Below are positions 17,447 through 47,100 of a DNA stretch of 64,000 nucleotides, one piece after another. The stretch is from Tubulanus polymorphus (lineage: Eukaryota; Animalia; Nemertea), in NCBI RefSeq assembly GCF_964204645.1, contig NC_134028.1:8494001-8558000 (forward strand), read 5' to 3'. Made by a program: the position numbers and the translations under genes. The notes beneath the pieces are model-generated. The model saw nothing but the letters and a program-made list of their open reading frames with translations. It did not search any database and was not told where the DNA came from. Each line of letters begins with the position of its first letter. Within the stretch, counting starts at the first letter, position 1.

Positions 17447-20400
17447 ATGGCGGAGTTTTACGATATCCGTCTTGCTCGAATTATCGTACTTGGAATATCG
17501 TTTATGTTGATGTTCACTGCATTTCAAACATGTTCTATGATCGAGGTATTTAAAGTTAATCTGTTCTATCCATATAACTCGAGATTTGTTGATGACAAGT
17601 GGTGGAATGGTGGTTCATGAAGCTAAAACGATGATGATCATGGTCAAATGTCAACCCCAACCAGCAACCAGTCCAATCTGTCAGTCAGTTCGTTCAGTCT
17701 ACCTACACTACATTCTCAAATCGTAGTTTTCGGAAAGTGGTGGGTTCAACGTCAGACTTTGTCCAAGTCAGATGATTTACACGGCCTAAAATATCCGACA
17801 TACACTAAGGTTTACACTTGGCTCTATTTGATTATTTTTCATGCTACTCCACTCGCTCCATCCATATCCATGATACGATGGCTTTTGAAGTGTTGCCTGT
17901 GCGCTGTAAGCAGGCAGTAGGACTTGAACCCACTTATCACGTGCCTTATCCCCCTCTGAGTTATTGAAGCTGCTAAACTTTTGATAATTTGGAAAGACTG
18001 GGAAAATCCGATCGATTTCTATTGCAGGAGACAGTAATCGAAGGAGCAATAAATGAACCAAACAGTACATTCACCGGAAATGGATATACAAGGTTTCATT
18101 TGCATATGAAAAAATCCGATTTAGTCTGGCAATTCTTTTTTTGCGAAAATTTCTTAAAGTGAAAAACTTTTTTTTTCAGCCTTGCGATAATTTATGCTTC
18201 ATTCGCAGTATCGAATTGGGCGGCGCCTTCGATTGTTAGCGTGTTAGGCCTCAAAATTTCGATGATGGTATCTGGTGCTATTTATGCGTGGGTATTGATA
18301 TTGTTTTATTTTATTCCATTTTATAGTTAAGTTTGAGCGTTGAAGGATAGATCAGTTAGATACTATAATAACAGAAAGGTGGACTGGTGGATATCGTGTC
18401 GACATGGCAATGTGTTAAGTCAATTGTTTTTGATTGTTACTTCGTGGCATCGATATAGAAGAAATTTGAGTTCGAACCCGGGGCAGCTATATATCGCTAG
18501 TTCAGTAAAGTCAACTCACTTAGGCTTGTAAACCACTGAATGTCTTAACTGCCCGGTATTCCAGCCCTGACCTTAAACGAACCTTAAACAATAAGAAACC
18601 ATAAACCTAACCCTTTTAAACCCTTATCCCTTAATCTAATCATAGTGATATGAATGTTATCTGATTATTAGATGGCGGTAAAATAATGTTTGCAAAAATA
18701 CTGTAGCAAAATATGAACTTCCTTGTAACTGTTTAAAACACAGGTACAATCATTGTCATGGAGTTTATCCATACACGTAAACTTCTTGACGAACGTTTGA
18801 GCCAGTCACCCCAAAAGTAAACTGAAAAGAATTATTTTAACAGTCCTTATACACTATCGCGTTGTTGATGTTTGCAGGCTGTTTATAGCGTCATTTTTGA
18901 AACCAATGACGTGGGCATTGTACACGATGTCGGTTTTGGTCGGAATCGCTGCGGCAGGTGACTATATTCGTCATTCAAAAATTGCATTATTTTTCGCTCT
19001 TGTGCTAGTAAAAAGATCTGTCTCGATTGTATTTTTAGTGATATGGACGGCACAAGGAAGTTACTTAACTATCAATTCTGATTCCGATACAATCGCAATT
19101 ACAAGTGGAATTTTCTGGGCATTGTTTCAGTGCAGGTGGGTGCCCTAAAATCTTCTTTCAGATAATATAATTTTTCGATGCTTCGTAAGATAGGCAATAG
19201 GGGGGCCAGCACAAATGAATTTGAATTTTCCTACATTCAAACTAAGGGGAGCTATGCTTTTTCCAGGTACTCTTGATAAAACGAAAATGATGATAATAAT
19301 GATGATGAAAATTGTATAAAAACTAGTAGTATCCAGACTTCTGAACTTACTTTTTCGTGAGAGTCAGGCTATTCGATTTAAACACATATATCAATGTCTA
19401 TATGTTACCAGAATTAATGTAATGGCTGTCGAATGTGCATCTATGCTTACATTACTGCACGTGATTAGATTTTCGGGTTTTTCTTTTATCTTCCAGTTTG
19501 CTGATAGGAAACGTGTATGTTTATTTTACGTTCAAAGGTGATATAACAGTGGACGCGGCGACCAGGACTACGTTGTTTTTAGTGTTTACAGCGGTCTGTG
19601 TGGCGGGCGTTTTGTTTCTCGCGATATTGTTCTGTCTGAAAGGTCGACAAGAGACCAGTATGGAGTCTCTAGTAGTTCCAATAAATCCGGGGTAAAGTAA
19701 TTTACGACAGTGTGCTGTTTGAAAATCGTTTTACCGATTAACTGCTGCGAATTGATTTCAATTTTTCCAAAAAATTGCAATGTTGAGCGATGTTCTAATG
19801 GAGTAGTGCTACAGGGTGAAATCGTTGAAACGTAATTGAATTCAATGTAGAATATGACATAACATTTTGATAAATCCTGTTGTTCTAAAGTGTCTTAGTG
19901 TTTTACATATTTGACTATGTAAATTAATTTGATTCTTAGCAGATCAAGATTTGATTCTTAGCAGATCAAGTCAGGGTAAACAACTTGCATGTCAAGAAAC
20001 AGTCAGGAAAAAAGCGGGAATTGGAATTTTTGATGAAAACCTATTTTCCTGATGCTCAACTCTGTATCCAGTCACTGCTCATCTTCACCCGTCAAGGGAT
20101 TCGAACCCACTCTGCTAAAGCTGTTCCCCGAACCCCTTGACCTCACGAGTCGTTGGAGTCGTTACTAGCCGACCAGAATCCGGTCGTACCAATCACAGCG
20201 CTTGTAACAAACCGTCAGTAGACTTCTGTTGGTTTTCCCGTTAAATTGACCAATCAGCGAACGTTTTACCGAACAAGGAAGTATTTCGCAAATCGATATA
20301 TGACGTCATGCGCAACAGCGCCAGTAATGAAACCACGCTTCGTGAGGCCAGGGGGCTGGTGGAAGCGAGTTCGGGAGTGATACCGGACCCCTGGCAAGCG

Positions 20401-23400
20401 AGGATGGTTGCTGTTCCAACCCTGCCATGTCTGTACAATGTTGTATTAAGTATTTTTGTGTGCTGTTTTCAGTGATGGAGAAAACCGGGGAAATAATGGG
20501 CCGTTACAAGCGCTTAGTAAGTTCAGTTAATCGTGATTTTGAATGCTGTCAAAATTTAGTTTTATCTACTTTACCGATGTCTTAGTACATAATTGATTTC
20601 AATCATTCATTTACAGAACGATCGTTCCATTTGTTTATTACTAGAGAAATGTTATTGCTCAGCGTCACATTTGGATTCACAGGTACCTAAATTCATCATT
20701 AAATTTGTGAAATTATGAAAAGTGAGTACACTCCACTTACCACTGAGCCTCTGATTATTGTATGTCCTGGGCAAAACATTGAAAACTTTCTCATTCGAAT
20801 ACATGTAATATCGACCCATCCCTGCTCCGGCTGCCCTGAAAATCGAATACCTCGGAGCTAATTTATCGTCACCGAAGATCTGAGGCTAGCGGAGTCTACT
20901 GCATATAGCAGACAGAGGTTTCTTCGGAACTATCTGAAGTATGCAATATTGGCAATTTTTGGATTTAAAAGATTGAGCCTGTATAAAGATCTGAGGTAAT
21001 TTGTATGATACATTGTGCATTGTATAATTATAAAAGTCCTTTGTTAATCATATTGACACATGTTGTATCGAGGTATGCAAGTTAATTTGATAATCCAAAT
21101 TGCGAATTATGTTTTTTATCGTGGTGGATGAGGCATTGAAAATTGCACATGTGGCTATTTTGAGAAACAAAAACCGTAGATATTTGTTTTATTTTTATGT
21201 GCGATCGATGAAACAAATCTGTTTATTTTGTTTTATCACGACAATGAAGCAAAATACGACAATACATAAACTAGTTACCATTGATGTAATTAAATACCCT
21301 ATCGATGTTTGAGGATAATATGAAATCCACACTAAAAATAAAAACGTTAAAAAAAACATATCAGAATTGTTATTTTCTCAGTGTGGGATTTTATATGAGC
21401 AGTTGACTAGACTGGTGAAACTTCGAATGCCTTCTTGTCCAATATTCACTATACTTTGCGATACTATATGAATTATGATTCCTATGTTGTACTCGTAAAT
21501 CACCAAATAACGAAATGGTGACGTGTTGTTTCTGGTAGTGGTACAAATTGTCTGAATTGGCCCCCATTATGCTGTATATTGGGAGCTCAATCATCCCTAT
21601 TTACTGGAAAATACTCAAATATTCCTTTCAGAAACACAGAGCTTTTAGTGTGGTGTCTTTTCTACCTCATTACAGGTCTTTCACTCACATTCTTCAGTGG
21701 TGTTTACGGTACATGTGTCGGTCATTCGCAAAAGTTTGGTACCGATGCTAAAGGCCTGATCGGAATTTGTGGAATATTCATCGGAGTTGGTGAAATTCTA
21801 GGTAATTATGAAGCTAAATACGGATATCCAATACATCAAAATCTTGAATAATGAAAGGATAATTGTGCACAAGCTTGTTTGATAAGGATTTTAGATATTC
21901 AAACAAATTACATGCAGTTGCACCTACACAAGTGTATGTATGTTAATCTTGGGAGGGAATAACTCTAACCAAGATGGTTTGCTTTTGTTGTTAGTTGACT
22001 AGTATAGTCGTATTAACTAGTGGTAGGAACTGGACGCACTTTTGCTTTATCTTACACATTTCATTGCCTTGGGAATCTAGGTCAGATGCTACAACAGCGA
22101 CTGCGCTCAATTGCATGTTTCACTGTTTTTGGACTAACTGACATTTGAGTCCATAGTCCAGCTACTTGACTCGATCATAATTGAGTTACCGGTAAATCTT
22201 CAGTTAATCTAAAACTAGCGTCCGAATCTGGCTGCAGGAATACTGAGAATATGTTATGCCAAGGTAGCAGGGTTCAGGCCCTCTGTTAGCACAACCATAG
22301 CTGCTACACATTTCAGCCTTGCACCCGTATGATTTAGCGATAATTTAATCACTACAATTTTCAATTTTCTACACAAGGTGGTGCTCTGTTCGGTTTATTC
22401 GGCAAGTGGATTAAACGATTTGGTAGAGATCCCATTGTATTGTTCGGTTTCCTAGTAAACATAACGACGTATTATCTGATATTCTTAAATCTGCCGCAAA
22501 TGTCTCCCATCGAAGAAACTGATGGTGCGGTGTATGTGGACTTTGGGTAAATTTTCTCTATGATAATTTTAAGACCATTTGTTAGGTACCGGTACGTATG
22601 TAAGCTGTGCCTTCGGTCCACAAGGTTGAAGTCAAAAGCAAACAATCTCTGTACATTAATGTAGCCCGGTAGAGAGAGTGAAGATACAAGATAAATCAGT
22701 TGATGTGCATTCCTTAAAAAGTAATGTATGGTCTTATTTTTTCTCAATATTTGAGTACAAATGTAGAACCCAACCTTTTTTTGACATTAATATAGGTAAT
22801 AAGTAAAATCAATGGAGTTTCTTTATTTTTTGCATACTTGGGTAATCGACCTAGTATCAATATTTACCTATGTTAGATAGCTTTTTGGGTACCGGTACGT
22901 AACTCATGAATGGTCCCACATAGATTTTCAAACGAATCATATTGATTTTGAATCATGTCACTTTTTGTGGTAGTAATTTGTAAGATGAAATTCCTTTTTA
23001 GAAAGTTTTCCAAGTATGTGGCGGTGATCTGTGCATTCCTTATAGGCTTGGGTGACAGTAGTTTCAATACACAGGTTAGTAGGTTATCGGTTTCTAGATG
23101 TTTTTACTTCGAAAAAATGGGTATCATCCATGCATTACAAACTTATTGCAAAAGGTGAGGGAATGTTTACGAAGAAATGAAATGTAGATGAGCCGCTTCC
23201 ATAGTCATGGCTTATATTTAGACCGGTGTAAGACCAAGTCTAAGAGCAATTTAAGACCGGTCTTATGATTAAAAACCACTTTTGGATTAAGTCATCTTTA
23301 GAAAGACCCCTCTCCCCCCCCCCGGAAGGTGAGGAGAGTGGGCACCTGGGGGCATTTGATTTGAATTTGGGGCCATTGGAATATGAACTGAACTGATCTA

Positions 23401-26191: not shown

Positions 26192-29100
26192 ATGGCGGAT
26201 TTCTACGATATCCGTCTTGCTCGAATTATCGTACTTGGAATATCATTTATGTTGATGTTCACTGCATTTCAAACATGCTCTATGATCGAGGTATTTAAAG
26301 TTAATCTGTTCTATCCATATCACTTGAGATTTGTTGATGACAAGTGGTGGAATGGTGGTTTATGTGGCTAAAGCGTGCAGGCCGGTTTAGTAGTCTGAAT
26401 ACCAGTCGTTGCGACAGTTGTTTGGGGCACAGGGACTTGTCACATTTGATAGTGAATGAATAAAACCAGTATCAATGACCAACTCCAGTATCCCTGTATG
26501 ATAAAAAAAACTAATCATCAATCTGAAAATGACCTCTCCACATCAACCTCCTGTAATTCCGTAATACTAATGCAGACACACTTACCAACAAACTCCACGA
26601 ACTCCATTTGTTTGTAAAGATAACCCGGACATGACGATATCGGAGGTTCATCCGAAAAATTATCCACGTAACTGCATAGGTGTAAGTAATTAGAAAAGTG
26701 GGGTTTCAGATCAGAGGGCGAGAGGGCGAGACACCACTCATCACCACAAGTAATTTTTTTTTCCTACTCATCACCACAAGTAATTTTTTTTCCTTATAAA
26801 TGGGGGAGAATGAACACCAGCCAGAAAACAATAATGTCAATAAAAATCAATATTATTGCCAATATTGTAAAAAATACATCGATACATCTCATAAAACACG
26901 ACATGAAAAAACTGCAAATCATATAAAAAATGTAATAGATTTTGAAACTCCAGAAAATTCTAATGAAAGAAAAGAACGATTAGAAAATATGAATGTGGAT
27001 GAAATAAAATGTGAAGTTTGTAACGAATTTATAGTAAAAAGGAATTATAATAGACATCTCGAATCACAAAAACATTATAAAAATTTAAATAAAAATGTTT
27101 TAGGATTAGAATATTTTGATAATAAACCTCAACAAGTAAAAGAATCAACTTCAAAAACAAAATCTATTTCAAATAAACCTTACATGGAAAATGTTAGAAA
27201 TTATATTGATTCACTAGAAATAAAAGATACAATTGAAATCTTAGAAACATTACATAGTAAAATTGGTCCTGCAGCTATTATATTTAGATTTTTTAAAGGT
27301 ACAACAATAGAAGATTATAGTAAATTTAATGAAATAATAGAAAAAATACTAGATTTGATAACAGATGTTGAATATCCAAAAATTAGTATCTCTGGGAAAG
27401 TAAGTTTTATAAAGTCAGAAGAAAAAATGAATTATAATATTCAAACACTCTCTGAAGAAATAATTTCAAAAACACAAATAAAAGAGAAGTTAGAAAAAAT
27501 ATTAAATGAATTTAAACGTCATATTGAAGAAAGATATTTTGAGGGTTCTGGCTTAACATTGAATGAAATTATATATTTAGATTTAAATGTTTATAATACA
27601 AAAAGGAATAAAACATCAAAAAGTAATAAAATGTTTAAAAATGATTCAAACTTTACAACAGAAAAGGATATTAAAGCATCATCTTATATTAAATTACCAT
27701 TTATAACAAAAGCAGTAATAAATATTCAAAATGAAGATAATAAATGTTTTCTATGGTCAATTATTAGTTGCTTACATCCAACACAGGAAAATGTTTGTAG
27801 AATAACAGATTATCGGAAATATGAAACATTATATAAAATTGATCAATATCCAGTAACTATAAAAATGATTCCTAAAATAGAAAAAGTTAATAATTTAAAA
27901 ATAAATGTATTCGAATTAATGCAATTACCAAAAACAAAAGGTGAAAATATTAAAGATTATACATTGGAAGCTTTATATTTAACAGAATATTATGATGATG
28001 AAAATGCTATAGATTTGTTATATTATAAAAAAGATGAAAATGAACATTATATGTGGTTAAAACAAATTGATTTATTCTTTAGAACAACAGAAAGTGATCA
28101 TCATCGTAAAATTTATCTATGTAGAAAATGTTTGTCTAAATTTATGACTGAGAATACATTATTAAAACATAAAGAATTATGTGATAATAAAGATTTTTGT
28201 AAATTAATAATGCCAACAGAAAAAGATTATAAATTGAAATTTACTAATCATAAATTTAAAAATATTATTCCATTTGTAATTTATGGGGATTTTGAATCGT
28301 TGAATAAAGAATTAACTGATCAAGATAGAAAAGAAATATATAACAAAAAGCAATTATTAAAATCAATGGATAAAGGAAATGAATTAAATGAAGACACAAT
28401 ACAAGACCCGCCAATTATAAATACAATTAAAAAAGTTCATCAAAGAGCTGCTGCTTATGGAATTTACATCAAATCAAATTATCCCGAATTATATGAAAGT
28501 CAATATATTTCTTTTAGAGGTGAAAATGTAGTTAATGATTTTTGTGATAAAATGATTGAATTAGAAAGTGATTTTACAAAATTATTAAACAAAAATAAAT
28601 GAATAGTTATGACAAAAGAAGATGAAATTGATTTTAATTATGCAACTCATTGTTGTTATTGTGAAAAACGTTTTTATTCATTTGATAAAAGAGTTAGAGA
28701 TCATGATCATTTGAATTCAAAATATCGTGGAGCTGCTCATGAAGATTGCAATTTACAAGCTAAAAAAGTAAATTTCGTACCAATATTATTTCATAATTTA
28801 TCAGGATATGATACCCATCTATTTATAAAACAATTATCGGGAAAATTGGGAGCAATTAATCAAGAAATAGAAGAATATAATGCTATGAATGAAGCAAATG
28901 TAAGAAAATATGATTTTAAACTATTAGCTAAAACATCTGAAAATTATATTTCATTTCAATTTGGTTGCATTAGATTTTTAGATTCTTATAGATTTCTTGC
29001 AAGTTCATTAGATAATTTATCAAAAAGTTTAGTTGATAATGATTTTGTTATAACTCGATATTATTATCCAAATGAACAAGATTTTAAATTATTGAGATAT

Positions 29101-32100
29101 AAAGGTGCAATTCCTTATTCATTTTATAAAACACATGATGATTTTAATGTAACAGAATTATTAAAAGATCAATTTTATGATCAATTAAAAGAGGAGTATG
29201 TGAAAGACGAAGTTTTTAATAGAACATTAAATATTTGGAACCATTTTAATATGAAAAATCATGGTGAATTAGTTGATTTATATTTAAAATCAGATGTTAT
29301 GATATTGGCAGATATATTTGAAAAGTTTAGAGAAGTTAATCTAAACCATTTTAATGTTGACCCTTGTTATTGTTATTCAAGTCCTGGTTTAACCTGGCAA
29401 TGTGGTTTAAAATATACAAATGTAGAATTAGATTTATTAAAAGAACCAGATATGGTTTTATTATTTGAAAAATCAATTAGAGGTGGAATTAGTGGTGTTA
29501 TGGGAGATAGGTATTTTAAAGCAAATGATGAATATAAATTATTATATATTGACGCTAATAATTTATATGGTTGGGCAATGATGCAACCTCAACCATATAA
29601 AAATTTTATATTAACAGAAGTTGAAAATGATGATAAAACTGATTGGGAAAGCGCAATTACGAGTTTAAAAGATGAAGCGCCAATTGGTTATTTCTTCGTT
29701 GTAGATTTGGAATATCCCGAAAATATAAAGTTTAAAACAAGAAACTTGCCATATTGCCCAGAACATTTAACCGTAGATGATAGTTATTTAAGTGAATACC
29801 AGAAGAAAGTAAAACCGAAAGATCATGTTTTTACGGAAAAATTAATACTTACTCAAAATAATAAATACAATTATATTGTTCATTATAGAATGTTAAAATT
29901 TTATCTAAAACAAGGAATGAAATTAAAGAAAGTACATAGATATATTGAATTTAATCAATCGAAGTGGTTAGAAAAATATATAGATTTCAATACTCAACAG
30001 AGAACCATATCAAAAACAGATTTTGAAAAAGATTTCTTCAAATTAATGAATAATAGTTTTTATGGTAAAACATGTGAAAATATTAGAAATAGAAATGATA
30101 TTGAATTAGTAAATAATTCTGAAAGATTAAGACATTTACAATCAAGTCCTAGACATTTAGGAAATAAAAGATTTGAAGATTATTTAACAGCAGTTAAATT
30201 AAAAAGAACATCAATGAAATTTAATAAACCTATATTTATTGGTTCGACTGTTTTAGAAGTATCAAAATTATTAATGTATGATTTTTATTATAATGTTTTA
30301 CAACCACTTTTTGGAGAAAAACATATAGAAATATTATATTTTGATTCTGTAACAGCTGACACCCCAATATTATTAAAATACAATAACCAAATATTGGTAA
30401 GAAGAATTTCAGAAATAATTTCAAAACAAAATGAATGTTATATTTCATATGGTGAAAAAGAATTAATGCAAATAAATGGATTAATGGATGTTTGGACAAG
30501 AAATGGATGGAAAAAATTAAAGAATATTATTAGACATAAAACAAATAAGAAAATCTATAGAGTTAGAACTAAATTAGGATTTGTAGATGTAACAGAAGAC
30601 CATAGTTTAATTAAACGAAATGGTGATGAAATAAAACCAACTGATATAAAAATTGGAGATGAAATTATTACATAAAAGATTTTACCCAAGAATGAATCAT
30701 ATGTCATTTGATGAAATAATTGATAATATTTATAATATAGAACCTGAAACATTGGAAGAAAAAGAATATTTTATCAAAGGATTTTTCATGGGTGATGGTT
30801 CAGCAGGTGTGTATAAATATGTTAATCGCAATAAATATTGTTGGTATTTATGCAATCAAGATTTGAAATTATTAGAAAGAATAAAGAAATTTTGCGAAGA
30901 AGTTTATTCACATAAAACATTTAGAATCATGGACCATATGAAATCATCCGCGGTTTATAGAATATTTGTAAATAATCCTAAAGATTTTGCTACAAAATAT
31001 AATGATGAATTCTATATTCATGCAATAGTGAAAAGTAATACTTCAACTAAAGAAAAGATAGTTCCAGATTATGTATTAAATGCAAAAAATAATTTAAGAA
31101 AATGGTTCTTCATTGGATTCTATGCTGCAGATGGTTCAAAAAGTTTCAAAAACCACAAAACAATATCCTTTGCTCAAAAAGGAAAAGTTGCTATATCAGG
31201 ATTAAATATATTATGCAGTTCATTAGGATTTAATATGAATATAGAATTAATTAAATCTAAACCAAATTGTTTTAATTTAAGGCATGTAGAAAAAGAATTA
31301 ACAGAAGAAGTTAAAGATTTATTTGAAATATATAACCCAACTGACTATGTTTATGATTTATCAACAGATGACGGAACATTCAATTCTGGGTTCCCATTAA
31401 TCCAAAAAAATACTGACAGTTACATACTAAAAATCAAGACAAATGATATAACAAAAGACTTAAAAACATTAAAACATCATTTTGATTTTAGCAATTATCC
31501 CAAAGATCATGAACTATTTAGCAATGATAATAAAAAGATTCCTGGTAAATTTAAAGATGAATTAGGAGGTGATGAAATGATTGAATTTGTTGGGATAAGA
31601 AGTAAAATGTATTCATATAAAACTAAAGAACATGAAGCTAAAAAGTTAAAAGGAATAACAAAACATGTGGTTGATAAACATATAGAATTTCAAGATTATA
31701 TAAAGTGTTTATATAAATCAATTGTAATGAAACACAAAATGAATTGTTTAAGATCAGAAAATCATGAAATGTATATAAATGAAGTTGAAAAAACTAGTTT
31801 AAATCCATTTGATGATAAAAGGCATATTTTAGATGATGGTATAAAAACATTACCTTATGGCCATTAAAACATAAAATCAATATCATCAAACTCGAAATCA
31901 CTATTGGCTTCTTCATTTTCATTTAATTGTTCAGGTTCTTCTTCAATTCCATTTTTCTCATTTAAATAAATTTCTATCTTGTTCCACATTTCATCTCGCT
32001 CTCTTTGTTTCTTTTTGTTTGTTAATTCATCAAATGGAATTATAATATCTAGGTTTAAATAATTTACAATCTTATTTAAAAAGAATTCATAATTTATTGA

Positions 32101-35100
32101 ATCTGTTATTCTATTTTCCAAATGATACATTAATATTTGTTTAAATATTTTTTTTATATTTTCCATATCTTCTTCTGTTAATTTAGGTTTTTCATAATAA
32201 TCGTTAAATAATAAATATAAATACATTTTCTTTTGTTTTGTGTTAAATGTTGACGGAATAATTGTTTTTATAATATCTTTTTTAGTTATTTCACCATTTT
32301 TATTTTCTATTATTTTCATTTTTTCAAGCCATTGCATATATTCTGGTGTATGATCTTCTATAGAAAATATTTTAAAAATTTCATCTAGATAATTTAATTT
32401 TGGTTCTATGAGAAAATCTCTAGTTTTTTCTTCACCCCATAAATTCTTTTGCCATCCACATTCAACACAAAATAACACAGCACCTTCTTGTCTTAAGGTC
32501 GCATAACTACATTGTGGGCATTTTCGTTTATAATTTATTGGTAATAGATCTTCATTAAGCTCTTGGTATTTTCTTACGTTTTCTTTATGTTTTATTGTTC
32601 TATTATGTAGATTTGAATTACTTGTTGTAATAATCAATTTACAATATTTACAATAATATGTTTTTCTTGTTAATTCATTATATTGTTTTTCTAACTTTTC
32701 AACTGTTTCTTTATTATCTGGTAACGTTTTCTCATATTTTATTTTTTCTAATAAATTATTTTTTCTTTCATTGAATTCAGTTTCAAATTTATTAGAAATT
32801 TTATCTATATGTGCTTTACGAAATTGATGATTCTCCCAATCTTCTATATTTTCAGGGTTATATTTTATTCGACAAGGCTCACAGAAATGATCTTTTATAT
32901 TATCCTTATCATAGAATAAGAAAGGTCTTTTCCAAATAACTTCAGGTTCAACTTCGGCAGATTTACTATCAACATTAGCCGTTGCGCCATTAATTCTACA
33001 CTTCTCTGAATGTTTTTTAACATAATTTCTTGAGAATAATTTATTACATTTTGGACAGTTTATTTTAGGGGGTTTATAATTTTCATCATGTTTTTTCATA
33101 TGTCGAGCCTTATTACTTTTTCTTAGAAGTTCACCACAAATTTCGCATGCTATCTTCTCTTCCATTTATTAAGGAAAAATTTTATTAAAATTAATTTTTA
33201 GTGATGAGCGGTAATTTTTTTATGTTATAAATAATGGTAGAATTAAAAGAATACAGAATATTTGTAGATTCTAGAAGACTTACAAATTATAAATCTCATA
33301 ATTTATTAATACAATTAGATAGAGAATTTAAGAATTGCGTTGATTTAAAATTAGTAAATATTAGTTTATGTAATTCTTTTTACAATGTAACGGATAAAAG
33401 TCTTGAACATTTAATTTTTTCAATCTTTTATAAAAAAAGGAATAAATGGTTTTTTATATATTTAAAACCAGGATTATATAATTTAAATACATTAGCACAA
33501 GAAATTAATAGAAAAGCTCGAGCTAAATTAGGAAGTGATTCTGGATTTAATATTAGAATTTTAAAAAGTGCTAGTTCTAATAAAATAAAGATTAGGTTAG
33601 ACGAACAATTTAAATTTACAGTAAGAAAACCTTTAGGTAAACTGTTAGGAATTGCCCCAGATATTGTTACAGCATACGCAGAAGGTAAATCAAACTTAAT
33701 ACCTTTTACACACTTTTATATTTATTGTAATTTAATCGATCCTACAAAAACATTCGAAGCAACTAAAGATATAACTTGTAATTCTGGTTTACTAAACATT
33801 TTACCATTGAAGAATGTTAAAGAATTTGGAACGCAAATAAATTATAATTTAACGGAATGTGATTTCAAACCTTGTATTCCTCAATTTAATAATTTTAAAT
33901 TAGAAATAAGAAATCATAATGGATACTTAATTGATTTGAATAACTTTCCTGTAATTTATGAATTAGTTATAAGATGTAAAGAGTAATTTTTCACCTATAT
34001 AAATGAATATAACTGTTGGACCGAGTATATGTTTTGGTTTTGATTTTAAACGTGAGAAAGAAATGAAATTTAATATGAATGATGTAATTACACATATCAA
34101 AAATATTGCATTTTCTAATGAAACAACATTTGAGTATGAAACAACAATAGATAAAGAAACTTTTAATGTAGAAAAGATTACTAATTTAATTAGAGAATCT
34201 TTAAGATTTTATGAATTAGATGAAGATTTTATAATCGATGATATCAAAAAAATAATAATTGAAATATATACAAATGAAACTAGTAATAAAATAAATGTTG
34301 AATTAATCATCACTAATTTAACTAAATATTTTGATGATAGTAATTTTTTTGATTAATAAATGAGTGATAATAAGTGGATAATAACTGGATTATATAATGG
34401 AGCATTACTATCAGTTGGAACTGTTGGTTATTCAATGGTATTAAAAAAAGTATTCAAAATGGGAAGTGTTAATGTTGATAGATTTGATATAAATGATATT
34501 CTAAAATTAACATTAGCAGTTACTTTATCTAATTTAACAATTGATTATTTGGAAAAACAAAAATATATTCCCCCCATATAAATGTATAATTTTTTTGCTA
34601 AATAAATGGCTTCTGCAATTATAACTATTATAGGATCAGCAATCGTTAACGCTTTAGCATTTACTGGTGGTGGATATTTATTTAAACATATTGATAAAAA
34701 TAGTTCATTAGGAGAACAAAGAAGACATAACTTAGCGTTAGAGAAATATAATAAAGATGCAGAAGAATATAGAGAAAAGAGACAAAACTATATGGATTAC
34801 ATCAATAAAGAATTATATGATCAGAAGATTTCACATAGAGATTTTCAATCAGTCGATGATGCAATGAGTTTATATAACGCGGTAACAAATAAAGAAAAAT
34901 TACATCTTTACAAACCTAAATTATCAGATTATTATACCCCAAGTAAAGAACAACAGAAATATGAAATAATATGGATTTTAGGTGGAACAGTTATTGTTAT
35001 ATTTGTTGCTTATAAGTTTACTAATTAGTAATTTTTTTTCTAAATAAATGGAAGATAAAGTTGATAGTATTGATATTATTCCTCATGATATAAATAAAAC

Positions 35101-38100
35101 TAAATTAAAAACATATTTAAAAAAACAAATATTAGAATTTGAAAGTGACTTAAAGATAAAAAAGAAAAAATATTTAAAAAGTAAAATTATATATTATCTT
35201 ATTATTAGTGGTTCGGTTACAATTAGTTCTGTAATAACATTTCTAGCAATATTCAGTCCATTAACACCTTTAGCTATATCAATTGGTGTATTAGGATTAA
35301 GTTCAAGTGTTTTAACTGGTATAAGTTCAAAATTAAATATAAAAAGTAATAAAGAAAAAATAAAATCTAATATAAAAGAAATTAATAAATTAAAGAATAC
35401 ACTAGATTATATAATAAGTTTAAATGGTCATATAACAGTTGAAGAACAAGATAAATTATTAAAAGAATTAATAAATTATTAATTTTTTAATTATATAAAT
35501 GGTAGAAAGTTTTCCAAAAACTTTCCGATATAATAAATCAATTAAATATAATATTCCAGCAATAGATTTTAATAAAGATATTACATATAGAAATGAAGTT
35601 TTAAATTCATTAATTGATTTATATATTTATGTTACTGAAAGTAATAATTTTAATGCAAAGATGGAAAATATATTTCATGTATATTTAATTAATTTTAAAA
35701 AATTGAAAGATGAAAAACAATGGTTATTAAAATCTAATATGAAGTATTGGCAGAACCAATTAAATTTTGCTGTTTATTGTGCAACAACAGGATGTGGAAT
35801 AAGTTGGAATGATCATTTGAATAATTCTAAATATAAATTAATTCAAAGTTTATTTAGATTTCATACATACTTTCAAATCAGAATAATATTAAATGAATTA
35901 GAGTGCGCTTTACCAGGATCTAGATATTTTAAAGAATTAGATAATAATATTAATTTATCAAAGTTTTATAAAATTTGTAATGAATTTAATATAGATATAA
36001 ATAATTCTGATTTTAGAATAAAAATTGGAACAATAAGATCACTTCCATGCCCTAGAAAGATTGCAGAATATTGTGCACTTCCCATACCATCTAATAGCTT
36101 TTATAATATCTATAATAAAAAATTAGGTTATGGTAAAATAGAAACAAAGGATTTAGAAACATTAAATTTCAATAAATTACCGAAATTTTATGATAATTTA
36201 AAACAAGAAAACAATAATGGTTGGGTTTATTTTATTTTAGAAAATAGTGAAGGTTTTACTAAATCAGGTATAGAAAGAATAAATCAATCTATTAGAACTT
36301 ATTTGATTTGTATTCTAGGATCACAAGTTGAAACAAGATCACCGATAATTGGAAATTTGAATACATCATTCGATACACAAAAACAATTCAAAGTTTTATT
36401 TGAAGATTCAATTCATAATGATAAAAATAGATCGATTCCAGAAAACATTATAAGATATCAAAATTATTTAGATAAATCTCATGTAAGACTTAATTATTGT
36501 ATAGGCCCTAATCTATTAATTATTTCTAATGATTTAGTATTAAAGATGGGAAATATAATTGGTTATAATAATCTAATTAAAACAGCAACAATAAATAATT
36601 CATTTGGATTAAATGATATAAATAAAAAGATTATTACTGCTCCAAAATTAATGGAAGGTGAAAAAAATAAAAAACACATTCAATCAACAGAAACTAAAAC
36701 TAAGAATATTAAATTGGTTAATGATTCCAAAATAAAAGATTACAATACATCAGAAAATAATAGAACTAATAATATTCAACATGATATAATTAAACTAAAT
36801 GATGATAATAAATCACATGAAAATACTAAATTAGCTATAACTTGTATAGGAATTGTAATCGGAGGAATATTATATTTTAAATTTTAATTTTCTTTATTAT
36901 ATAAATGGAAGTAGAAGGTGTAGAAGATATTGGAATGGATCCTTTTGATAAACCTGGTATAACTGATGAACAACCACCTAATTTTGATGAAACAAGTTTT
37001 AATGATGGTAATGAAACAGCATATAATTCTAATTTAACTACACCCCAATTTATTGACAAAGCACGTTCAAAGATAAGTATTGAAAATGAAGTACCAGAAA
37101 TAACAGAAAAAGAATACAATTATAATGAATTTATTAATGATTTTAAACCTTTATTTGAAGAATCTGGTTATAATATAAATGAAAGAGGCGCTAGACTTTT
37201 AGTAAAAGATTTAAAATATTTAGATGGTGAATATTATTATTATTTGGATGGTGATAATTTAAATGGTGAATTTTATATTAATATCTCTTATAAAAATCAA
37301 AACAAAATATTAGCAGAATCAACTTTGATTAAGTTAGAACCAGATAGAATTAAGAGAATAAGTAATAGTAATGAAATAACTGTTGTTACACAAGAAGAAA
37401 TAGATCACTTTAAAAAATTATTTAAAAAAAGAATTAATGAGTTATTTAACAAAATCTATGATAATTTAGAACCAGAAATGGAAGAGAATAGAAATCGATT
37501 AGATAGATTGAGATCTTCAACACCCGAAACATCGAGAAGAGACACTCAACCAATTGATAATGATTCAAGTCAATTACAATTACAATTACAATTAGAAAAA
37601 CAAATTAATAGATTAAGTGATTCAGAAGAAGAAATGAATAGTACTGGAATAAATCGACTGCAATATTTACTAGAAAAAGGATTTCTTAATTTAACTGATG
37701 AAGAATTAGAAGCATTTCCTGAACAAATACGTAGAGAAATTAAAGGTATACAAGTATCAGCTGATGAAATTGCTAATATTAAGATGAGATTTTCTAAAAT
37801 AACCATGTTAGAAAAAGAATTAACTAATGCAGATGAAGAATTAAAACAATTAGAATTAAATAGAGATCTTAATGTAATTTATGAAGCTGATTATGAAAGC
37901 AGAAAGTTAGCTTTAGTAAAAGAAATAGATGATTTAGAATATAACATAAAATTACAAAAAGAAGAAAGAGATATATTATTAAAATCATATGATCTTAATC
38001 ATATTAAAAAATTAAAAGTTATTTTTAAAGATTTGTTGATTAAACCAGATTCTGAAATATCATTAAAAGACAGAATAAGATTATTATTTAAATTAGAAGG

Positions 38101-41100
38101 AATAACAATTCTTTCAATTGTAACAGCTGTAACTATGTTATTTACAACAATTGGTTTAGCAATATCAAATGCTTTGAAATCTACTCCTACTCCCACTCCC
38201 AATAAACCAGATAAACCTCCAGGTAATAATTCTATACAAGATAAAGTTAAAGATGGTTTAAAGAAATTAGCAAAATATTTATGGGAACTATCAAAGAAAT
38301 CTGCTGCAGCTTTACCGGGAGTTATTGCTTCAATTGTTGGTTTTATATTGAAATCTGCAGGTAATATTCTTAACTTTGCTGCTGAACATATTATTTTATT
38401 TTTAATTACAGTTGTAAGTGCTATTATTTTTGGGTTAGTAAATATGATATCAAAAAATATCAAGTAAACCATGATATCAAAAAATATCAAAAAATAAATA
38501 ATTAATTTTTTTGTTAAATAAATGAGTGGGAGTTATATAAGTCCTTCGAAGAATCATAGAATATCTAATGCTATTAAAGCAGAGAGATCACATCATATAA
38601 TTACTCATAACCCTTCTAATATTAATCCCGATGAAACTTTATACGTTAGAATCCCTCGATTAACACAAAATACTTTTTATGTTCCAAACAGTATTTATTT
38701 ATCAGCCGATATAAAAGTAACTGGCCATGATAACAATTATGTTGTTGATAATGTTGGAAGATATTTGATTAAAAAATTAACTATAAAGATTGGTCCGGAA
38801 ACAGTTTTCTCATTAGATGATTATAATTTATTTATGCATTATAAAGATTTATGGTTAACTAAAGAAAATAGAAATAATATGATATTTCAAGGCATCCAAT
38901 CGGAAAACCATAATAAATTAAGATCTGAAGCCAATAATGCAGTAGTAACTCGTGCCACAGATAATTTGATTAAAAAGATTTATGGAAGCAAATATAAAAT
39001 TCCATTAGACTTTGAATTGATAAATAATAATGCACCTTTATATAAATACGCAATTCAAGAAGATATTATATTTGAGATAACATTTGCTCCTGTAAATGAA
39101 ATTGTATTATCTAGCGTTGTTAAAGATATGGGTTATAAATTATCGAATATATGTTTAGAATATAACACAGTAACTAATGAAAATATTGCTAGCACAATTC
39201 AAACTCAATACAATCAAGGATTTTCATTATTATATGATTATATTGATAAATTTAAAACTGTAACTATTAATGCAAATGATGAAATAATTAATGAGAATAT
39301 TAACTTTCCTAGAAGATCTATTAAAGGTATATTAATATTTTTTACTATTGCAACATATTCTAATGGTGCAATAAATGTTGATAATTATTATAATCCTGAA
39401 ATAACAAAAGTAGAAATAACTATTGAAGGTATAGCGAATAAAATATTTTGTCAAGGAATGAGAATGATAGATCAATGGGTAGAAATTAAAAAACATTTTA
39501 TGAATGAAAAAGTAAAATCATTTGAAAATTGTAATATTAATCAAATTGATTATTATACCGGTAATAAATATGCATTATGGTTAGATTTTAGAACAACTGA
39601 AGATAATTCATTACATGGTTCTGGAAAAAAACTACAAAATACAAAAGATGGAATACAATTATTCATGAAAAAGAATAAAGGAATCAAAAATTTTAAAATG
39701 CACATTTATATTATATCTGATGCGCAATTAAATATTGTAAATTCACAATTAGATAGTATTCAATATTAGAAATATAAAGTTAAAATTAAGTGTATATAAA
39801 TGGGTGGTAAAAAATCTCCTAATACTAAAGAACAATATTTAAGAAATTTATATTACAACCCTGAGAGTTCGGTTGCTTATTCTTCTACCAAACATATATG
39901 GCGTCAAGTAAAACAAGATAAATTAGATAAGATAATCCCACAAAATTTAGTTAAATATAAAGATATAAATGAATTTATGTTAGAACAACCAACATATACA
40001 ACACATAAAAAAATTGTTAGAAAATATGAAACTCGTAAAACTATGGTAAGTTATGTAGATCAACAGTGGCAAGGAGATTTAATTGATAGGAAAAATGTTA
40101 AGAAAGATAATGATGATTATTGGTGGTTATTGAATATAATTGATATTTTTAGTCGTTATGTATGGAGTTTCCCACTTTATAGAAAAGATGCTGCACAAAC
40201 ATCACATGTTTTAAGAAAATTTCTTTCGGATGATAAACTAAAACCAGAAAAAATACAATTTGATGATGGAAAAGAATTTGATAATTCACTTGTTCATGAA
40301 CTCTTAGATAATCATAATATTAAATATTTTTCAACAAAATCAGATAAAAAAGCAGCAGTTGTTGAACGATTTAATAGAACATTAAGAACAAGAATGTGGA
40401 AATATTTTACAGCAAATAATACTTTTAAATGGATTGATGTTTTACCAAAATTGATAGAAGGATATAATAATTCTTATCATTCTTCTATTGGAATGAAACC
40501 TATTGATGCTAGAAAATCTGAAAATGCTGAAATTGTTTGGAATAATTTATATGGAGCATTTCTTATAGATGATTTTGGTGAACCTAAATTTAAAGTTGGT
40601 CAAAATGTTAGAATTTCTAAGTATAAAAAGATATTTGATAAAGGATACGATCGAAATTTTACTAGGGAAATATATAAAATAAAAAAGGTAATAACAACAA
40701 AACCATATGTCTATAAATTAGAAGATTTAGATGGTGAAGAAGTTGATGGATATTTTTATGAAGAAGAATTAAGTTTAACTACTGAAAATCTAGAACAAGA
40801 ATATAAAATTGAAAAAGTATTAAAAACAAAAACTATTAAAAGAAAAAAATATTCTTTAGTAAAATGGGTTGGATGGCCAGATAAATTCAATGAATGGATA
40901 TTATCAAGTAAAATTAAAAATATATAAATGAATAAGGAATTACTCATATTTGAGCCTCATAATATGTTAATTTCTGGTGTAACAAATTGTGGAAAAACTT
41001 ATTTTATATTACATTTATTAGAAACTGTTTATGAAAACTATTTTGATAATATAGTATTATTTTGTCCAACATATGAATTTAATCAAACTTATGATAGAAA

Positions 41101-44100
41101 TATTACTAGGAATAATAAATTTATTATATTAGATCCTAAAACAGTAAAAGAAAATTTAGATAATTGTATTAAAATAGCAATTGATATTTATAAAGGATCA
41201 AATACATTATTTATCATAGATGATTGTGCAAATTTACATGATTCTAAAATTAGAGAAAGTGAGTTATGTTATTTAGCTTTCTCTGGGAGACATTTTGGGA
41301 TAACAACTTGGGTTTTAAATCAAAAATATAATTCAATTGTTAAAGACTTTAGAGAAAACATTAGATTTCTAGTTTTATTCTACAATAAAGATAGAAAATC
41401 AATGAAAAATGCACTTGAGGAAAATGATATTATTCCACATGATTTACATAATGAATATATGGATGAGTTGAAAAATATCAAAAGATCAAAATTACTATTT
41501 AGATTACAACACCCATTTAAATATGAATTTATTTAAATTCAATTAGTTTGTTAATCTAGTTGAATTCTAGTTATTGGTAGTTGTAACAAAAATCAAATAG
41601 ATTTAACAATATTTTAACTAGCTTGTTAATCTATTTTAATTCTAGTTACATTCTAGTTGAATTCTAGTTGTTAGTAGTTGAAACAAAAATCAACTAGATT
41701 TAACAAGAAATAAATAAAAACAACAATATTTCAACTAGCTTGTTAATCTAGTTGAATTCTAGTTACATTCTAGTTAAATTCTAGTTGCAACATCACACAA
41801 TTAATTTTTTTGTTATATAAATGGTAGGTGAAAAGAAAATAAAATCTAAAAATGGTGATGTTCCAATTGAAAAAACTTTAGATAATTTAGGAATAACAGA
41901 AACAAAATTAACTCCAGATGATGGTGTTTTAAATAATGTTACAACAAATAATAATTATGAATATTATCTTTATTGTAAACATCAATTAGAAATATTAATA
42001 GCATCTGGAAAATGTAAAAATTTTGTCAGTAAAAATTTAACTTATAATGAATTAGACACAATGAAATCAGATGAAATTATTAAATTATTTAAGATTTATG
42101 AAGCCGCGAGAACAGCTAGAATTAATGACGCGATATCAGAAAATGTAGTAAAAGGTTATAGTAAATTATGTAATTATATACTACCAATTGAAGATGAAAA
42201 TAGATTATATTCCGATTTAAAAAATGATTATTTAGTTATGACTGAATTAAATAAATGGATTGGATATTTATCATTTCAATTAGGTGGATTTATGACATTA
42301 TTATCAACTGGAGTTATAACATTTTCAAATATTGAAAGTAAAAATATTTCTATAATAAATGAGCGAGGTGAAAGAAGTGAAGGAATTAACTGTGAAGAAA
42401 AAACCGAGAACTCAGAAACAAATTGAATGGTCTCGACAATTAGGAATTAAATCACAAGAATATAAAAAAGCTGTAAAAGAAAAAATAAGTAATAAAAATG
42501 TTAATAAAAATGGTGAAAATATTGTTATTTCTACTCCTTCTGATAGTAGAATATTTGATAAATATTTATATTTTACAGTTGGATTTGTAATTGTATTCAT
42601 TTTGATTGGGTGTAGTTGGTATAAGAAATCAAATAAAATTCATAATATTAGTAATTCTGAACCAACTGCTATCAAAAATGAAAGTACTTCTGAAATTCCA
42701 AAATTGATAATAAAAAAAATGGATTAATATTTTAGAAAAAAAAGTAAAAAAAATAATTAAATATCTCACTACTTTTGTCTATCTATGTGGAGCAATTAAA
42801 TTGTCCAGATAAGTCATTTCGGATTCTAGATATTCATTATTTTTATTAATTTATTTTGTTTTTATTTGAATATTTGAATTTGAATTTGTTAATCAATTAA
42901 CATAGTAATTGATTACTAATTTGATTAAAAATTATATCATAATTAAGTTAAAAATACATAATTCATTTATCAGTTTTCATTCTTACATTCTTTTCATTTG
43001 GAATAATTTATAATTTCAAATTTCACATATTTTTTTAACACCAACAACATTTACTTAGGTGTTTTAGCTAAGTATATAAGGCAATTCATTCAACCACTGG
43101 AGTAGCTCTAGCCAGCAGAGGCATTTTGAAAATGCACCTTCGTCCACTCTCTGGGTTTCTACTTCGGTTTCGAATTTCGAGATTGGTAGAAATTACATTA
43201 GGCGCCTTTAATATAATGTGATTTCTACCAATCATTGAAGGAGATCCCGGTTGATGTGGGTCTCCGGGGGTGTAAGTAGAAATGACGGGGGATAAGCGTC
43301 CCGTGGCGCCTTTCAATAATGGGATGCTTATCCCCTGAAAACTCTGTAGGTCGAGGATAGGGCAATTTTGCTAAAACTTACCGTAAAAACATTGAAATAT
43401 TCCTTTTAATCACGAGAGAATGATGACTATCCTCCTATCGTCACAGCTGAGCTAATTTAAATAAACCTCGTTTTCAGCAACTAATGAAAACGCAGTAATT
43501 CGATACCAGCTAACTGGTTTGTGTGTGTTGTATGTACTACGTGCTTATTATAACAACAACGTTGTGCAACACCTGTTTGATTGATCAATATTCAAATGAA
43601 GCACTCTCTTATAATAATATGTAACAGATGTACTGTATGATTGTAGTTGTTTATAAAACGACTAAGGTCATTTTGGATTCTAGATATTCATTATTTTTAT
43701 TTCTTATTTAATCAACAATTTCTAAATCATGATGACCGTCTTCATTTTTCCCATGATATATTATTTTAAATCCTACTAAATCTTTCAATTCCTCCGTACT
43801 CAATGAAACCCATTTATCGGGTAAAAACACTTTAAATTCTCGCGATGTACTAACATTACAGTAGCTTAAATTAGCTGATACTTTCTCTCCATATTTAGTT
43901 TTTATCTTTTCTAATTTCAATATTTTATGTTCAATTTCTTTTGTAACATCAACTAACTTTTTTATTTCAAATTGTTTTTTTGCTGGTTTTATTCTGTTAT
44001 TTATTGTTGCTAAGAATGCTTTTCTATCTCCCATTTATTAGGAAAAAAAATTACTTGTGGTGATGAGTGGTGTCTCGCCCTCTCGCCCTCTGATCTGAAA

Positions 44101-47100
44101 CCCCACTTTTCTAATTACTGGTGTAAGCGTTTATTTTACGAAGCACCGTCAACGGCGGAAGAGTAGTTATTATCTATGTGAAACACGGTATTGATTATTG
44201 CGAACTCTTATCATATGAAGTAACCAATGATAATCTTTGGATAAAATTAGAAAACTACAACCGGGGTGTATCTACTGAAGCCCTAATGCATCCATCGATG
44301 AGAGTAGGGAGATTTGATTTATAAGATGTCAAAAGAGATACGCCCTATGCCGAAATTATTATCTGTGGAGATATGAATTTTTATCCTGAGATAGACTGGA
44401 ATGAGATGTCCACCAAGTTAGGGTTGCCAACTGCTCCGGAAAGATTCGTGATTATTTTCTCACCCAGCACGTATAGATCAACCAACAAGGCACCGTGCAA
44501 ACCAGCGTAGGTCACGACTGTCAACATAAGGCACCCCTTCTGGGAGCGAAGACCACGTCATTATTATTTTTAATCTCAATTGATTTTAATGAACTTCCGA
44601 GGAGTGTTAATGTATGAAGTGGTGAACCTACGATAAAGTGAGGGACGAAATGTGTAAACAAAACTCATTTGACTGTCAAATCAGTTTTGTTTTGACAACT
44701 CGTCAGACAGCTTATCAAGCTTGGATGTCACATTTAGCTGATATTTAATTAGAGATTCGATATGTGATCTAACCAAAAGGTTTGTACCCTGTTATAGAAT
44801 TACCCATGAGCACGACGAAGGTAAAAAGCCCATTTGGATGAATGCCCCGGCTCTAAGGAAAGTTAAAATGAAACACTACAGAGAGCCTGGTAAAGGTATC
44901 TCACCACCAAGAACGGTAAGTTTAACAAATTGTATCAACAAAAGAAACTTTGCGCGAAGAGAAATAAAAAGAGCCGTCAGATTGTACGAAAAAAAACTAT
45001 CGTGAACAAGGTTAGAAAAACCCTTAGGCATTCTGGAGTTACATGAATACTAGATCTAAAATCAAACAAAAAACAGACATACCGCCTTCGGTTTCAACAA
45101 CGGTTCGATACTTTCAGATGACAAAGAGATAGCTAAACTATTTAACACCTTCTTTAGTCGCGTGTTCACGGAGAAAAATTTGACGAGCTTTCCCGATCGA
45201 GCACCGAAGGTTTTAGAAAACATAAGTAATATTGATATAGATGCCGAACTAGTATAGAAACATTTGAATAACCTAAATATACAAGAGCCCAGGCCCTGAT
45301 ACTCTCACCGAGAGTATACTCGGGGAACTGTCCGTTGAGCTTTGTTTACCTTTGGCGATTCTTTTTGAAAAATCGCTAAAACTATGGTCACTTACCATCG
45401 GACTGGAAAATTGGTCTTATAATGCCTATCCTAAAAAGGACGAAAAGACGAAGTTAGAAATTACCACCCTGACAATTATCAGGCATACAACAATGGAGCA
45501 CTTAAGATACATCGATATCCCCTGCACAACATAGCTTTGTACCCAAAAAGGAATTGTCAGACCAACCTGTCAATGTCTCTTGAGAAATGGACCAGTAAAC
45601 TCGACCGAAAAGGTATGGTTGACTCAATTTACATAGACTTCGAATAGGTGTTTGATAGGGTACCTCAGTGCCACCAACGTTTGACAAGGAAACTACGTAA
45701 TATGGGTATAGACGGCAAGGTCTTAGATTGGATATCAGATTTCCGAAGGAAAAAACCCGAGCGTGACTTAAGCATTCCGCGTTATTGAACTTCGTTTTGT
45801 GAATAATATTAGGCGGCTCCGAAATGTTCTCGGTTATTATCAGGATATCTAATTTTATGCGCTCTGCGTGATATATGCATTTTGCTGAAGACCCGTGTGA
45901 GTTATCCTGTAACATCTTCTGAACAAACCAATGATGATCGTAAATGTCAATAATGAATGTCTATCACGTCCACGATTCCCCGGTCTCGGCACATAAGAAA
46001 AAGATACAGTAAACCTTGCGTAAGTCGTATAATCGCTTATATAGGATGAATATTGATGGTCCCGAATTTTCCTTCTTTTTTCTAATAAATTAACATCCCA
46101 ATATTTCCTCCAATTCAAAAGTCGGTAACTCGCCATACTCGTAGTATATCTTTTCTTGGCCCCAAAATAAAAATCAGGATTACTAAAAAAATCGAGATTA
46201 ATCACCGAAAGCCAAAGGGATATATATTCTTCCCATTGCAGTTTGATTTCTTCCCTGTTCCGACCCCTGTTTCTTGCTTGGAATCGACGATGCATTTGAC
46301 AGACGTTATTATTGTGTTTTAGAAAAATAAACCGGAAATATTTCAGTGTTTTCAAAACATTTGTTGATTTAATTTTTCCGTTCACAGAAACTGATTCTCA
46401 AGTCGTAGTTTTCGGAAAGTGGTGAAATCCGACTTATTCAACGTCAGATTTTCCATGTTGGGGGATTTTTCTTGTTCCCAAAAGATCTGACTTACACAAG
46501 GTTTACACTTAGCCTATTGGATTCTTCATGATACGACGGCTTTTGAAGTGTTGCCCGAATGCTGTAAGCAGGCAGTAGGACTTGAACCCGCTTGTCACGT
46601 GCATTATCCCCCTGAGTTATTGAAGCTGCTTAACTTTTAATAATTTGGAAAGACTGGGAAAATCCGATCTATTTCTATTGCAGGAGACAGTAATCGAAGG
46701 AGCAATAAATGAACCAAACAGTACATTCACCGGAAATGGATATACAAGGTTTTATTTGCATACGAAAAAATCAGATGTAGTCCTGCGATTCATTTTCGCG
46801 AAAAATGTGTTAAATCGAAAACCATTTATTTCAGTCTGGCGATAATTTATGTGTCACTCGCAGTGTCGAATTGGGCGGCGCCTTCGATTGTTAGCGTGTT
46901 AGGCCTCAAAATATCGATGATGGTATCTGGTGCTATTTATGCGTGGGTATTTTTATATTCTATTCAATTTTTTTGTATTAAGTTTGAGCGTTGAAGAATA
47001 AGATAGCTTCATAATAACAGTAAGGTAGTGGGTATCATGTCGACATGACAATGTTGTAACTAAAGCGTTCTTGACTGTGACGTAGTGGCAGCGATATAGA

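Follow-up and report, generated by a model that had tools for sequence, protein, structure and literature searches.

The DNA polymerase (PolB) of Mimivirus contains an intein which, according to the accessible part of its description (Ogata et al. 2005, PMC549080), splits its host as YGD|TDS, starts with Ser, ends with Asn and is followed by Thr at +1. This intein includes a LAGLIDADG domain, is about 350 aa long and ends with Lys-Asn (KN) in the Mimivirus entry P0200. The same site is occupied in the PolBs of aquatic NCLDVs (Mimiviridae sp. ChoanoV1, P0174) and in three gp43 polymerases of T4-like phages (P0112, P0382 and P0412) by inteins whose block G is shorter by one residue. Inteins have also been found in eukaryotic nuclei, within viral-like DNA polymerases encoded by nuclear scaffolds of Klebsormidium, Tetrabaena and Hondaea (PMC10710043). 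The three hosts comprise an alga, a relative of plants and a protist, and the accessible sections of that paper present the polymerases neither as Polinton protein-primed polymerases (pPolBs) nor as multicopy elements that have both full and empty alleles. A 2018 survey of eukaryotic inteins (PMC5784728) covers, in its accessible part, fungal nuclear, algal plastid and NCLDV inteins.

Polintons or Mavericks (adintoviruses) are characterized, in the available portions of PMC8502044 and PMC8097293, by terminal repeats, a 6-bp duplication, a pPolB, an rve integrase, an A32 ATPase and a capsid protein; the word intein does not occur in the main texts of these two papers. Inserts of the HNH and VSR types are known within Polinton pPolBs and are presented solely as endonuclease domains in the accessible sections of PMC10748475 and PMC11071308. 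Our literature search, which did not extend to subscription journals, Repbase reports, InBase and supplements, where a prior note is possible, did not turn up any intein described from a Polinton or from a protein-primed polymerase. A previous, sequence-only reading of the DNA analyzed here had stated that inteins were already noted in Polinton polymerases; the search gave this statement no support, the available text of PMC11071308 merely speculating that the HNH/VSR inserts originated from inteins.

Here we analyzed a 64,000-nt stretch of DNA (the window) and found in it an intein that resembles that of Mimivirus in its site, its Ser start, its Asn end, the Thr at +1, its LAGLIDADG domain, its length and its KN end, and is 38% identical to it. 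By contrast, its host polymerase is protein-primed and belongs to a Polinton that is integrated in nuclear DNA, its block G is one residue shorter, and Mimivirus is not its sister lineage. The short-block-G inteins of NCLDVs and T4-like phages are 35–43% identical to it and fall in the same clade of our 45-row tree, but their hosts are RNA-primed polymerases of free viruses, and their sisterhood with the pPolB inteins is weakly supported (70/60). Unlike the HNH/VSR inserts as they are described, the window intein has complete splicing blocks, occupies the motif C site and has precise empty alleles. The element shares the features listed above for Polintons/Mavericks, its capsid protein being probable, and differs from those described in that no protease was detected in it and nearly all of its genes start with TAAATG. 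The motif C (pol-c) inteins of Polinton pPolBs are apparently an undescribed clade, of which the window copy is a decayed member.

The element and its host polymerase

The features of the element and of the intein, in window positions, are the following.

26679..26684, no strand: left 6-bp target-site duplication, GGTGTA
26685..44119, no strand: element of 17.4 kb read as a complete Polinton/Maverick, with 77-nt terminal inverted repeats (0 mismatches)
26781..26802, + strand: start motif (T-run and TAAATG) preceding the polymerase gene, one of the 9 in the element
26800..31867, + strand: PF03175-type polymerase gene, host of the intein (Pfam; PF02945 on the nearest relatives)
30346..31411, + strand: intein coding sequence, 1066 nt, with Ser start, block B T-x-x-H, two LAGLIDADG motifs, block F Asp and Lys-Asn end
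30346..30675, + strand: N-terminal splicing region (blocks A and B) in the N-extein frame, TIGR01445 match
30650..30675, + strand: frameshift region of the window copy, where the reading frame breaks; most sister reads lack the break
30650..31411, + strand: linker, LAGLIDADG endonuclease and C-terminal splicing region in the C-extein frame
38522..39769, + strand: probable double-jelly-roll major capsid protein (Atlas feature matches to viral clusters)
39800..40927, + strand: rve integrase with chromodomain (Pfam)
40928..41536, + strand: A32-like packaging ATPase (Pfam)
44120..44125, no strand: right 6-bp target-site duplication, GGTGTA

Terminal inverted repeats, AG...CT ends, a 6-bp target duplication and a length of 15–20 kb are the hallmarks of Polintons/Mavericks. 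The segment 26685–44119 ends AGT...ACT and has a GC content of 24%, against 37–39% in the flanks; judged by its sequence, it is a complete Polinton/Maverick and a recent insertion. Pfam detected no adenain-like protease among its 16 ORFs, seven of which match no family at all. The ORF at 38522..39769 likewise had no Pfam match; its Atlas features match viral clusters at 0.97–0.98, and in some of these clusters DJR/capsid families are found on 10–24% of the members, with low recognition, so that its double-jelly-roll capsid identity is a lead only. The polymerase is of the HNH/EndoVII type. Besides the frameshift within the intein, it has a second break, an in-frame stop at 28600–28602, and the window copy, decayed in this way, would make neither polymerase nor endonuclease.

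Scanning of 68 of the 132 flank ORFs revealed TMEM26, MoaC and a RING gene upstream and tandem intron-split UNC-93 paralogues around the element. TMEM26 is a metazoan family, and the flank gene set suggests an animal host. The Atlas gave no taxonomic placement for the host exon. The observed/expected CpG ratio is about 1.0–1.1 in both flanks (1–26684 and 44120–64000), indicating that CpG is not depleted in the host. The UNC-93 family is represented by at least four tandem intron-split paralogues, at 18800–23200 and 46700–63300, and the Polinton lies between the first two. A small MITE-like element of nested inverted repeats occupies 48876–49128, and a related arm is found at 21523–21569, in an intron of the first UNC-93 copy.

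Anatomy of the intein

YFD is encoded at 30337–30345, the Ser1 codon of the intein is at 30346, its final Asn codon at 31409–31411, and TDS follows from 31412. The insertion point is therefore between D and T of PolB motif C, the pol-c site, and these coordinates confirm the YFD|TDS split, the Ser start and the KN end that had been read from the sequence. Because 1066 nt correspond to 355 codons plus one base, the frame breaks within the intein, between about 30650 and 30675. Ser at position 1, the terminal Asn and Thr at +1 are all in place, as are the block B T-x-x-H, the block F Asp and two LAGLIDADG motifs with acidic (Asp) catalytic residues. When the translation was read with X at the frame break, LAGLIDADG_3 scored 33.2 bits (cut-off 22.5) and the TIGR01445 intein N-terminus 33.5 bits (cut-off 24.5); Pfam Intein_splicing reached 24.7 bits, under its cut-off of 35.8. 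From these residues and profiles, we identify 30346–31411 as a LAGLIDADG intein at motif C of a Polinton protein-primed polymerase. All ten motifs of the sequence-only reading were recovered, and they line up with those of the Mimivirus PolB intein (P0200, 38% identity, E 9e-62).

The penultimate residue is Lys instead of the usual His. Among 321 parsed intein ends of the family, near-duplicates included, 156 were KN and 106 HN, and the Mimivirus intein also ends KN. The KN end is thus the family norm and was not treated as defining for a class-1 pol-c intein; KN was rejected as a distinguishing mark, and of the earlier statement on this point the KN end stands and its unusual character does not.

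A PDB sequence search with the second-frame piece of the intein gave no meaningful match. For P0003, a natural relative whose intein is 47% identical, a Hint plus LAGLIDADG fold was predicted (pLDDT 93, from a 61-row alignment); this prediction applies to the relative and not to the window copy. The P0003 fold matched the TliVMA intein, PI-PkoII, PI-PfuI, PI-SceI and I-DmoI, and its best viral matches were NCLDV PolB entries.

Distribution of related inteins

Homolog searches returned 98 matches of similar length and 817 longer ones, the best 120 of which were listed. The best matches were other pPolBs with an intein at the same site (9 of the best 120: P0100–P0105, P0107, P0108 and P0125), with inteins 44–63% identical to that of the window. 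P0100 is intact, measures 1693 aa and has an intein 62% identical to the window's; in P0100 and P0101, unlike in the window copy, the intein is in frame within a translatable host gene. Next among the listed matches were RNA-primed PolBs, mostly at 33–43%, including ChoanoV1 (39%) and Mimivirus. A search of 50% representatives gave 2058 matches, 298 of them at 1e-30, and its parsed rows were RNA-primed PolBs.

Alignment scans located family members on many giant-virus MAG contigs, and no pPolB host was found among those loci whose flanks could be parsed. The scans also yielded 24 prokaryote loci, comprising two Lokiarchaeal PolBs at 39–41% and distant hyperthermophile pol-c inteins. Single-sequence scans for the window intein gave no match in viral contigs, prokaryote genomes or 50,697 phage records.

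Several observations concern the wider family, which includes Lokiarchaeal, T4-like phage and topoisomerase-site members. The two Lokiarchaeal (Promethearchaeota) PolBs, at L081:1754-5737 and L082:1694-5686, lie in an archaeal gene context and contain a 336-aa NCLDV-type intein that nests with viral and topoisomerase-site members. Topoisomerase II and a second PolB site are further, non-allelic locations of the family (P0450, P0500, P0506 and P0021; P0138, P0145 and P0378). One further T4-like gp43 polymerase, P0466, has an intein with the long block G, and the nesting of T4-like gp43 inteins among giant-virus PolB inteins suggests, from the sequences, virus-to-phage intein traffic. Many PolB halves of 545–760 aa (P0022–P0088, P0175, P0186, P0199 and P0215–P0219) contain mini or full inteins; they begin about 60 residues before motif C and are apparently split PolB genes of one virus group.

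Phylogeny of the intein and its possible donors

The pPolB inteins formed one clade in each tree: 13 of 120 rows with an SH-aLRT of 99 (a tree limited to inteins of at least 320 aa), 9 of 76 rows with a support of 99 in a mixture-model quick tree, and 7 of 45 rows with 100/100. The 45-row tree was computed under LG+G4 from hand-picked rows and was rooted on four archaeal pol-c inteins. In this tree, the pPolB inteins joined 16 NCLDV-type and two T4-like inteins in a clade with a support of 99/98, outside of which were Mimivirus, one row that we take to be prasinovirus-type, the Lokiarchaea and the outgroup. The NCLDV-type PolB intein family, the pPolB set included, was separated from the hyperthermophile archaeal pol-c inteins at 100/100; a grouping with these archaeal inteins, which would have spoken against a giant-virus connection, was thus not observed. 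The other pattern that would have done so, an intein tree congruent with the pPolBs and lacking NCLDV neighbors, was seen in its first half only, since NCLDV-type neighbors are present in the 99/98 clade.

Block G is shorter by one residue in 74 ends, namely all 23 of the pPolB type and 51 others; the 247 long-form ends include no pPolB. The short-block-G grouping had a support of 86 in the 120-row tree and of 70/60 in another tree, and the 76-row quick tree preferred the NCLDV-type P0172/P0385 as the sister of the pPolB inteins (84). AU tests (LG+G4, hand-picked set) did not reject a pPolB clade that is basal (p=0.27), that is sister to T4-like phage inteins (p=0.09) or that is sister to the short-block-G inteins of NCLDVs only (p=0.15). 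Two groupings were rejected as clades: pPolB with Mimivirus (p=0.003) and pPolB with Loki (p=0.001). The sister group of the pPolB inteins is therefore unstable on present alignments, and an ancient NCLDV-to-Polinton jump appears as the best tree but is not proven. Membership of the intein family is settled; the donor and the direction of transfer are left undecided by the trees.

The description of the window intein as Mimivirus-type accordingly holds insofar as it shares family and site with giant-virus PolB inteins, and a special link with Mimivirus falls away, given the AU result and the closer inteins of other pPolBs. The strongest form of that proposal, a recent direct homing from a Mimivirus-like virus into the Polinton lineage within an animal host, could draw on the common site and motifs and on the 38% identity. 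It is very improbable in view of the rejected pairing, the closer pPolB inteins, the co-divergence of intein and exteins described below, and base composition: the intein has a GC content of 25% and the extein of 24%, and their GC3 values are similarly close. At 37 short-block-G loci, the present NCLDV target sites differ from that of the window at 4–9 of 18 bases, so that present-day cross-homing looks unlikely. In the accessible part of PMC549080, similar distances were taken as an argument for stepwise rather than single transfers.

Alternatively, the donor may not have been an NCLDV: the intein may have come from a T4-like phage, or may have originated in Polintons, from which one group of giant viruses and phages then acquired it. 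The three T4-like gp43 polymerases with the same short-block-G intein, the phage-sister and basal arrangements retained by the AU tests and the family members held by Lokiarchaeal PolBs would fit such a history. Against it, T4-like phages are not the hosts in 43 of the 46 short-block-G cases outside pPolBs, the 45-row tree places the phage pair within NCLDV inteins with a support of 97/95, the pairing with Loki is rejected, and the phage records gave no match. We regard a donor other than an NCLDV as unlikely.

Intein and extein histories

To compare the intein with its host, a FastTree of 110 N-exteins was used, from which 22 proteins with an unparsed site had been dropped and in which P0103 was not included. 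The 12 intein-bearing rows among the 110 require nine changes, and the nearest exteins of the window (P0225–P0227, 73–82%) are empty. Extein and intein identities to the window were 60.5/62.6, 48.4/50.6, 48.5/44.3 and 45.5/48.8, and the branching orders of the two trees agree among HNH-type pPolB carriers. Since intein identity follows extein identity and the branching order is the same, a single old entry followed by co-divergence is indicated, and the entry into the pPolB lineage was probably ancient and single. It also follows that the window copy inherited its intein along with the extein. The window copy thus records no recent co-infection of the kind proposed from the shared allele.

Signs of turnover were nevertheless present. 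P0354 (full) and P0357 (empty) have exteins that are 99–100% identical. In the P0101 cluster (P0337–P0350), 7 of the 15 listed members are full, 4 are empty and 4 do not cover the site; full and empty members are 97–100% identical in most windows of the alignment, and 87% and 77% identical in two 30-residue windows touching the site. This dip could reflect a co-conversion tract or a cleavage-resistant empty allele. The empty alleles of the cluster encode TDA instead of TDS and differ from the full ones almost only beside the intein site. P0103, which motif reading places in the VSR-type pPolB class, gave no significant BLASTP match to the window N-extein, yet the intein that it carries shares 48% identity with that of the window and groups within the pPolB clade. 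The intein has thus jumped between pPolB classes at least once, although a placement of P0103 outside the HNH-type clade was not rejected (AU, p=0.12).

Both catalytic Asp residues are kept in 12 of 12 full-length pPolB inteins as well as in the window, and identity to the window is 44–60% in the endonuclease, compared with 44–66% in the N-terminal splicing region, so that conservation of the endonuclease equals that of the splicing domain. The retention of both Asp residues, the patchy occurrence and the presence of P0103 in an unrelated pPolB class favor a homing cycle. Patchiness and co-divergence, on the other hand, also fit inheritance with repeated loss. According to this alternative, the intein still splices but no longer homes, having been inherited from an early Polinton, and the empty sites arose through recurrent precise losses or because empty copies converted full ones. 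The matching divergences and the common branching order in HNH-type pPolBs agree with it, and so do internal deletions within the intein, detected as read joints on some contigs of the species. However, the catalytic residues persist in all 13 full-length members over about 50% extein divergence, where the homing-cycle model, as presented in the accessible part of PMC1654191, expects the endonuclease to decay after fixation; in addition, P0103 needs a lateral move, and identity in the P0101 cluster dips only at the site. Inheritance with loss alone is therefore quite unlikely in our judgment, and homing remains the preferred reading.

Full and empty alleles in one species

Sister copies were observed through the reads of four runs of the same species (at most three samples from two studies, one of them possibly the source of the window), mapped at 80% likeness. 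In the raw reads X5, the mean depth was 475 in 20 extein bins and 215 in 7 intein bins, a ratio of 0.45. The intein/extein depth ratio of 0.45–0.49 is a rough guide, copy number being uncalibrated and divergent copies adding to the conserved extein bins. Sixty-two reads with 41 different starts skipped exactly 1066 bases and thus represent a precise intein-free allele. A further 45 reads represent a second empty allele: they lack the intein, and 4 of the 8 bases that follow the site are changed, with T-D-S still encoded. Empty alleles also occurred in the X1 contigs. Full and empty intein alleles therefore coexist in the species, and the intein-less sister copies that the sequence-only reading had proposed to look for do exist, as precise skips in reads. 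This coexistence suggests that the intein is still spreading among the copies.

The stop of the window copy was absent from 310 of 321 reads, and its frameshift from 179 of 231 X5 reads and from about 99% of the X1 contig depth. As most sister reads lack either break, both are nearly private to the window copy. This result bears on whether the frameshift might be functional, as in a split, trans-splicing intein or a programmed frameshift, given that the break is located just 3′ of the N-terminal splicing region and that an ATG is available in the second frame at 30659. Because the frameshift is nearly private, the same gene has the unrelated premature stop, and the ATG at 30659 lacks the start motif of the element, a functional split intein was rejected, and we find any functional role of the frameshift scarcely credible.

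A probable homing cycle among Polinton copies

Taken together, we consider it likely that a full-length motif C intein entered the Polinton pPolB lineage long ago, likely once and probably from the giant-virus PolB pool, and that it likely persists by homing into empty sister copies. Following established intein chemistry, an intact copy would undergo class-1 splicing, in which an acyl shift at Ser1, transfer to Thr+1 and cyclization of the Asn would rebuild D-T-D. Without splicing, the polymerase would be dead, so that the splicing domain would be kept under selection. Under the homing-cycle model, the endonuclease would cleave empty sites, which would then be converted as the break is repaired on the template of a copy with the intein. 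Such homing could involve integrated copies, or free copies that replicate together.

The pol-c allele now spans the divide between RNA-primed and protein-primed polymerases and reaches what is probably an animal nuclear genome. The intein would attest that Polintons and large DNA viruses were in contact in the past, and it bears on a possible free, helper-dependent viral phase of animal Polintons. As full and empty copies occur in one species, the homing cycle is testable by population sequencing alone. Finally, Polinton polymerases that seem about 350 residues too long may be intact rather than misannotated.

Start motifs of the element

TAA-ATG begins 14 of the 15 element genes examined at 26781–44053, a count that covers the right end in part. 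A set of 13/14, obtained once two antisense ORFs and two Met starts lying inside the broken polymerase had been excluded, became 14/15 on addition of the ORF at 42359. As background, 50 of 631 ATGs are preceded by TAA. A T-run plus TAAATG occurs 9 times, always at a gene start inside the element, against 0.2 expected. In vaccinia, late promoters consist of a T-containing core, a 5–7 bp spacer and TAAAT(G/A), as given in the accessible part of PMC5294985, and PLVs have been found with entomopoxviruses, according to the available text of PMC11296320. The poxvirus-type TAAATG starts hint at a life beside a cytoplasmic large DNA virus; no poxvirus is named among the listed relatives of the window intein. 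Co-infection, which the intein alone does not show for this host, thus receives an independent hint from the start motifs. Among 22 HNH-type pPolB loci of viral contigs, none contained an intein and one (L195, 4/4 ORFs) had TAAATG starts throughout, indicating that neither trait is general.

More tentatively, the intein may act as a gene drive among Polinton copies in animal nuclear DNA, with the Polinton parasitic on a cytoplasmic large DNA virus, and that setting may have spread the family over giant-virus, T4-like phage, Asgard archaeal and two unrelated pPolB classes; we hold this to be possible rather than probable. At the left end of the element, the terminal segment with the start motif is tandemly duplicated (26737–26799), which places two T-run boxes before the polymerase.
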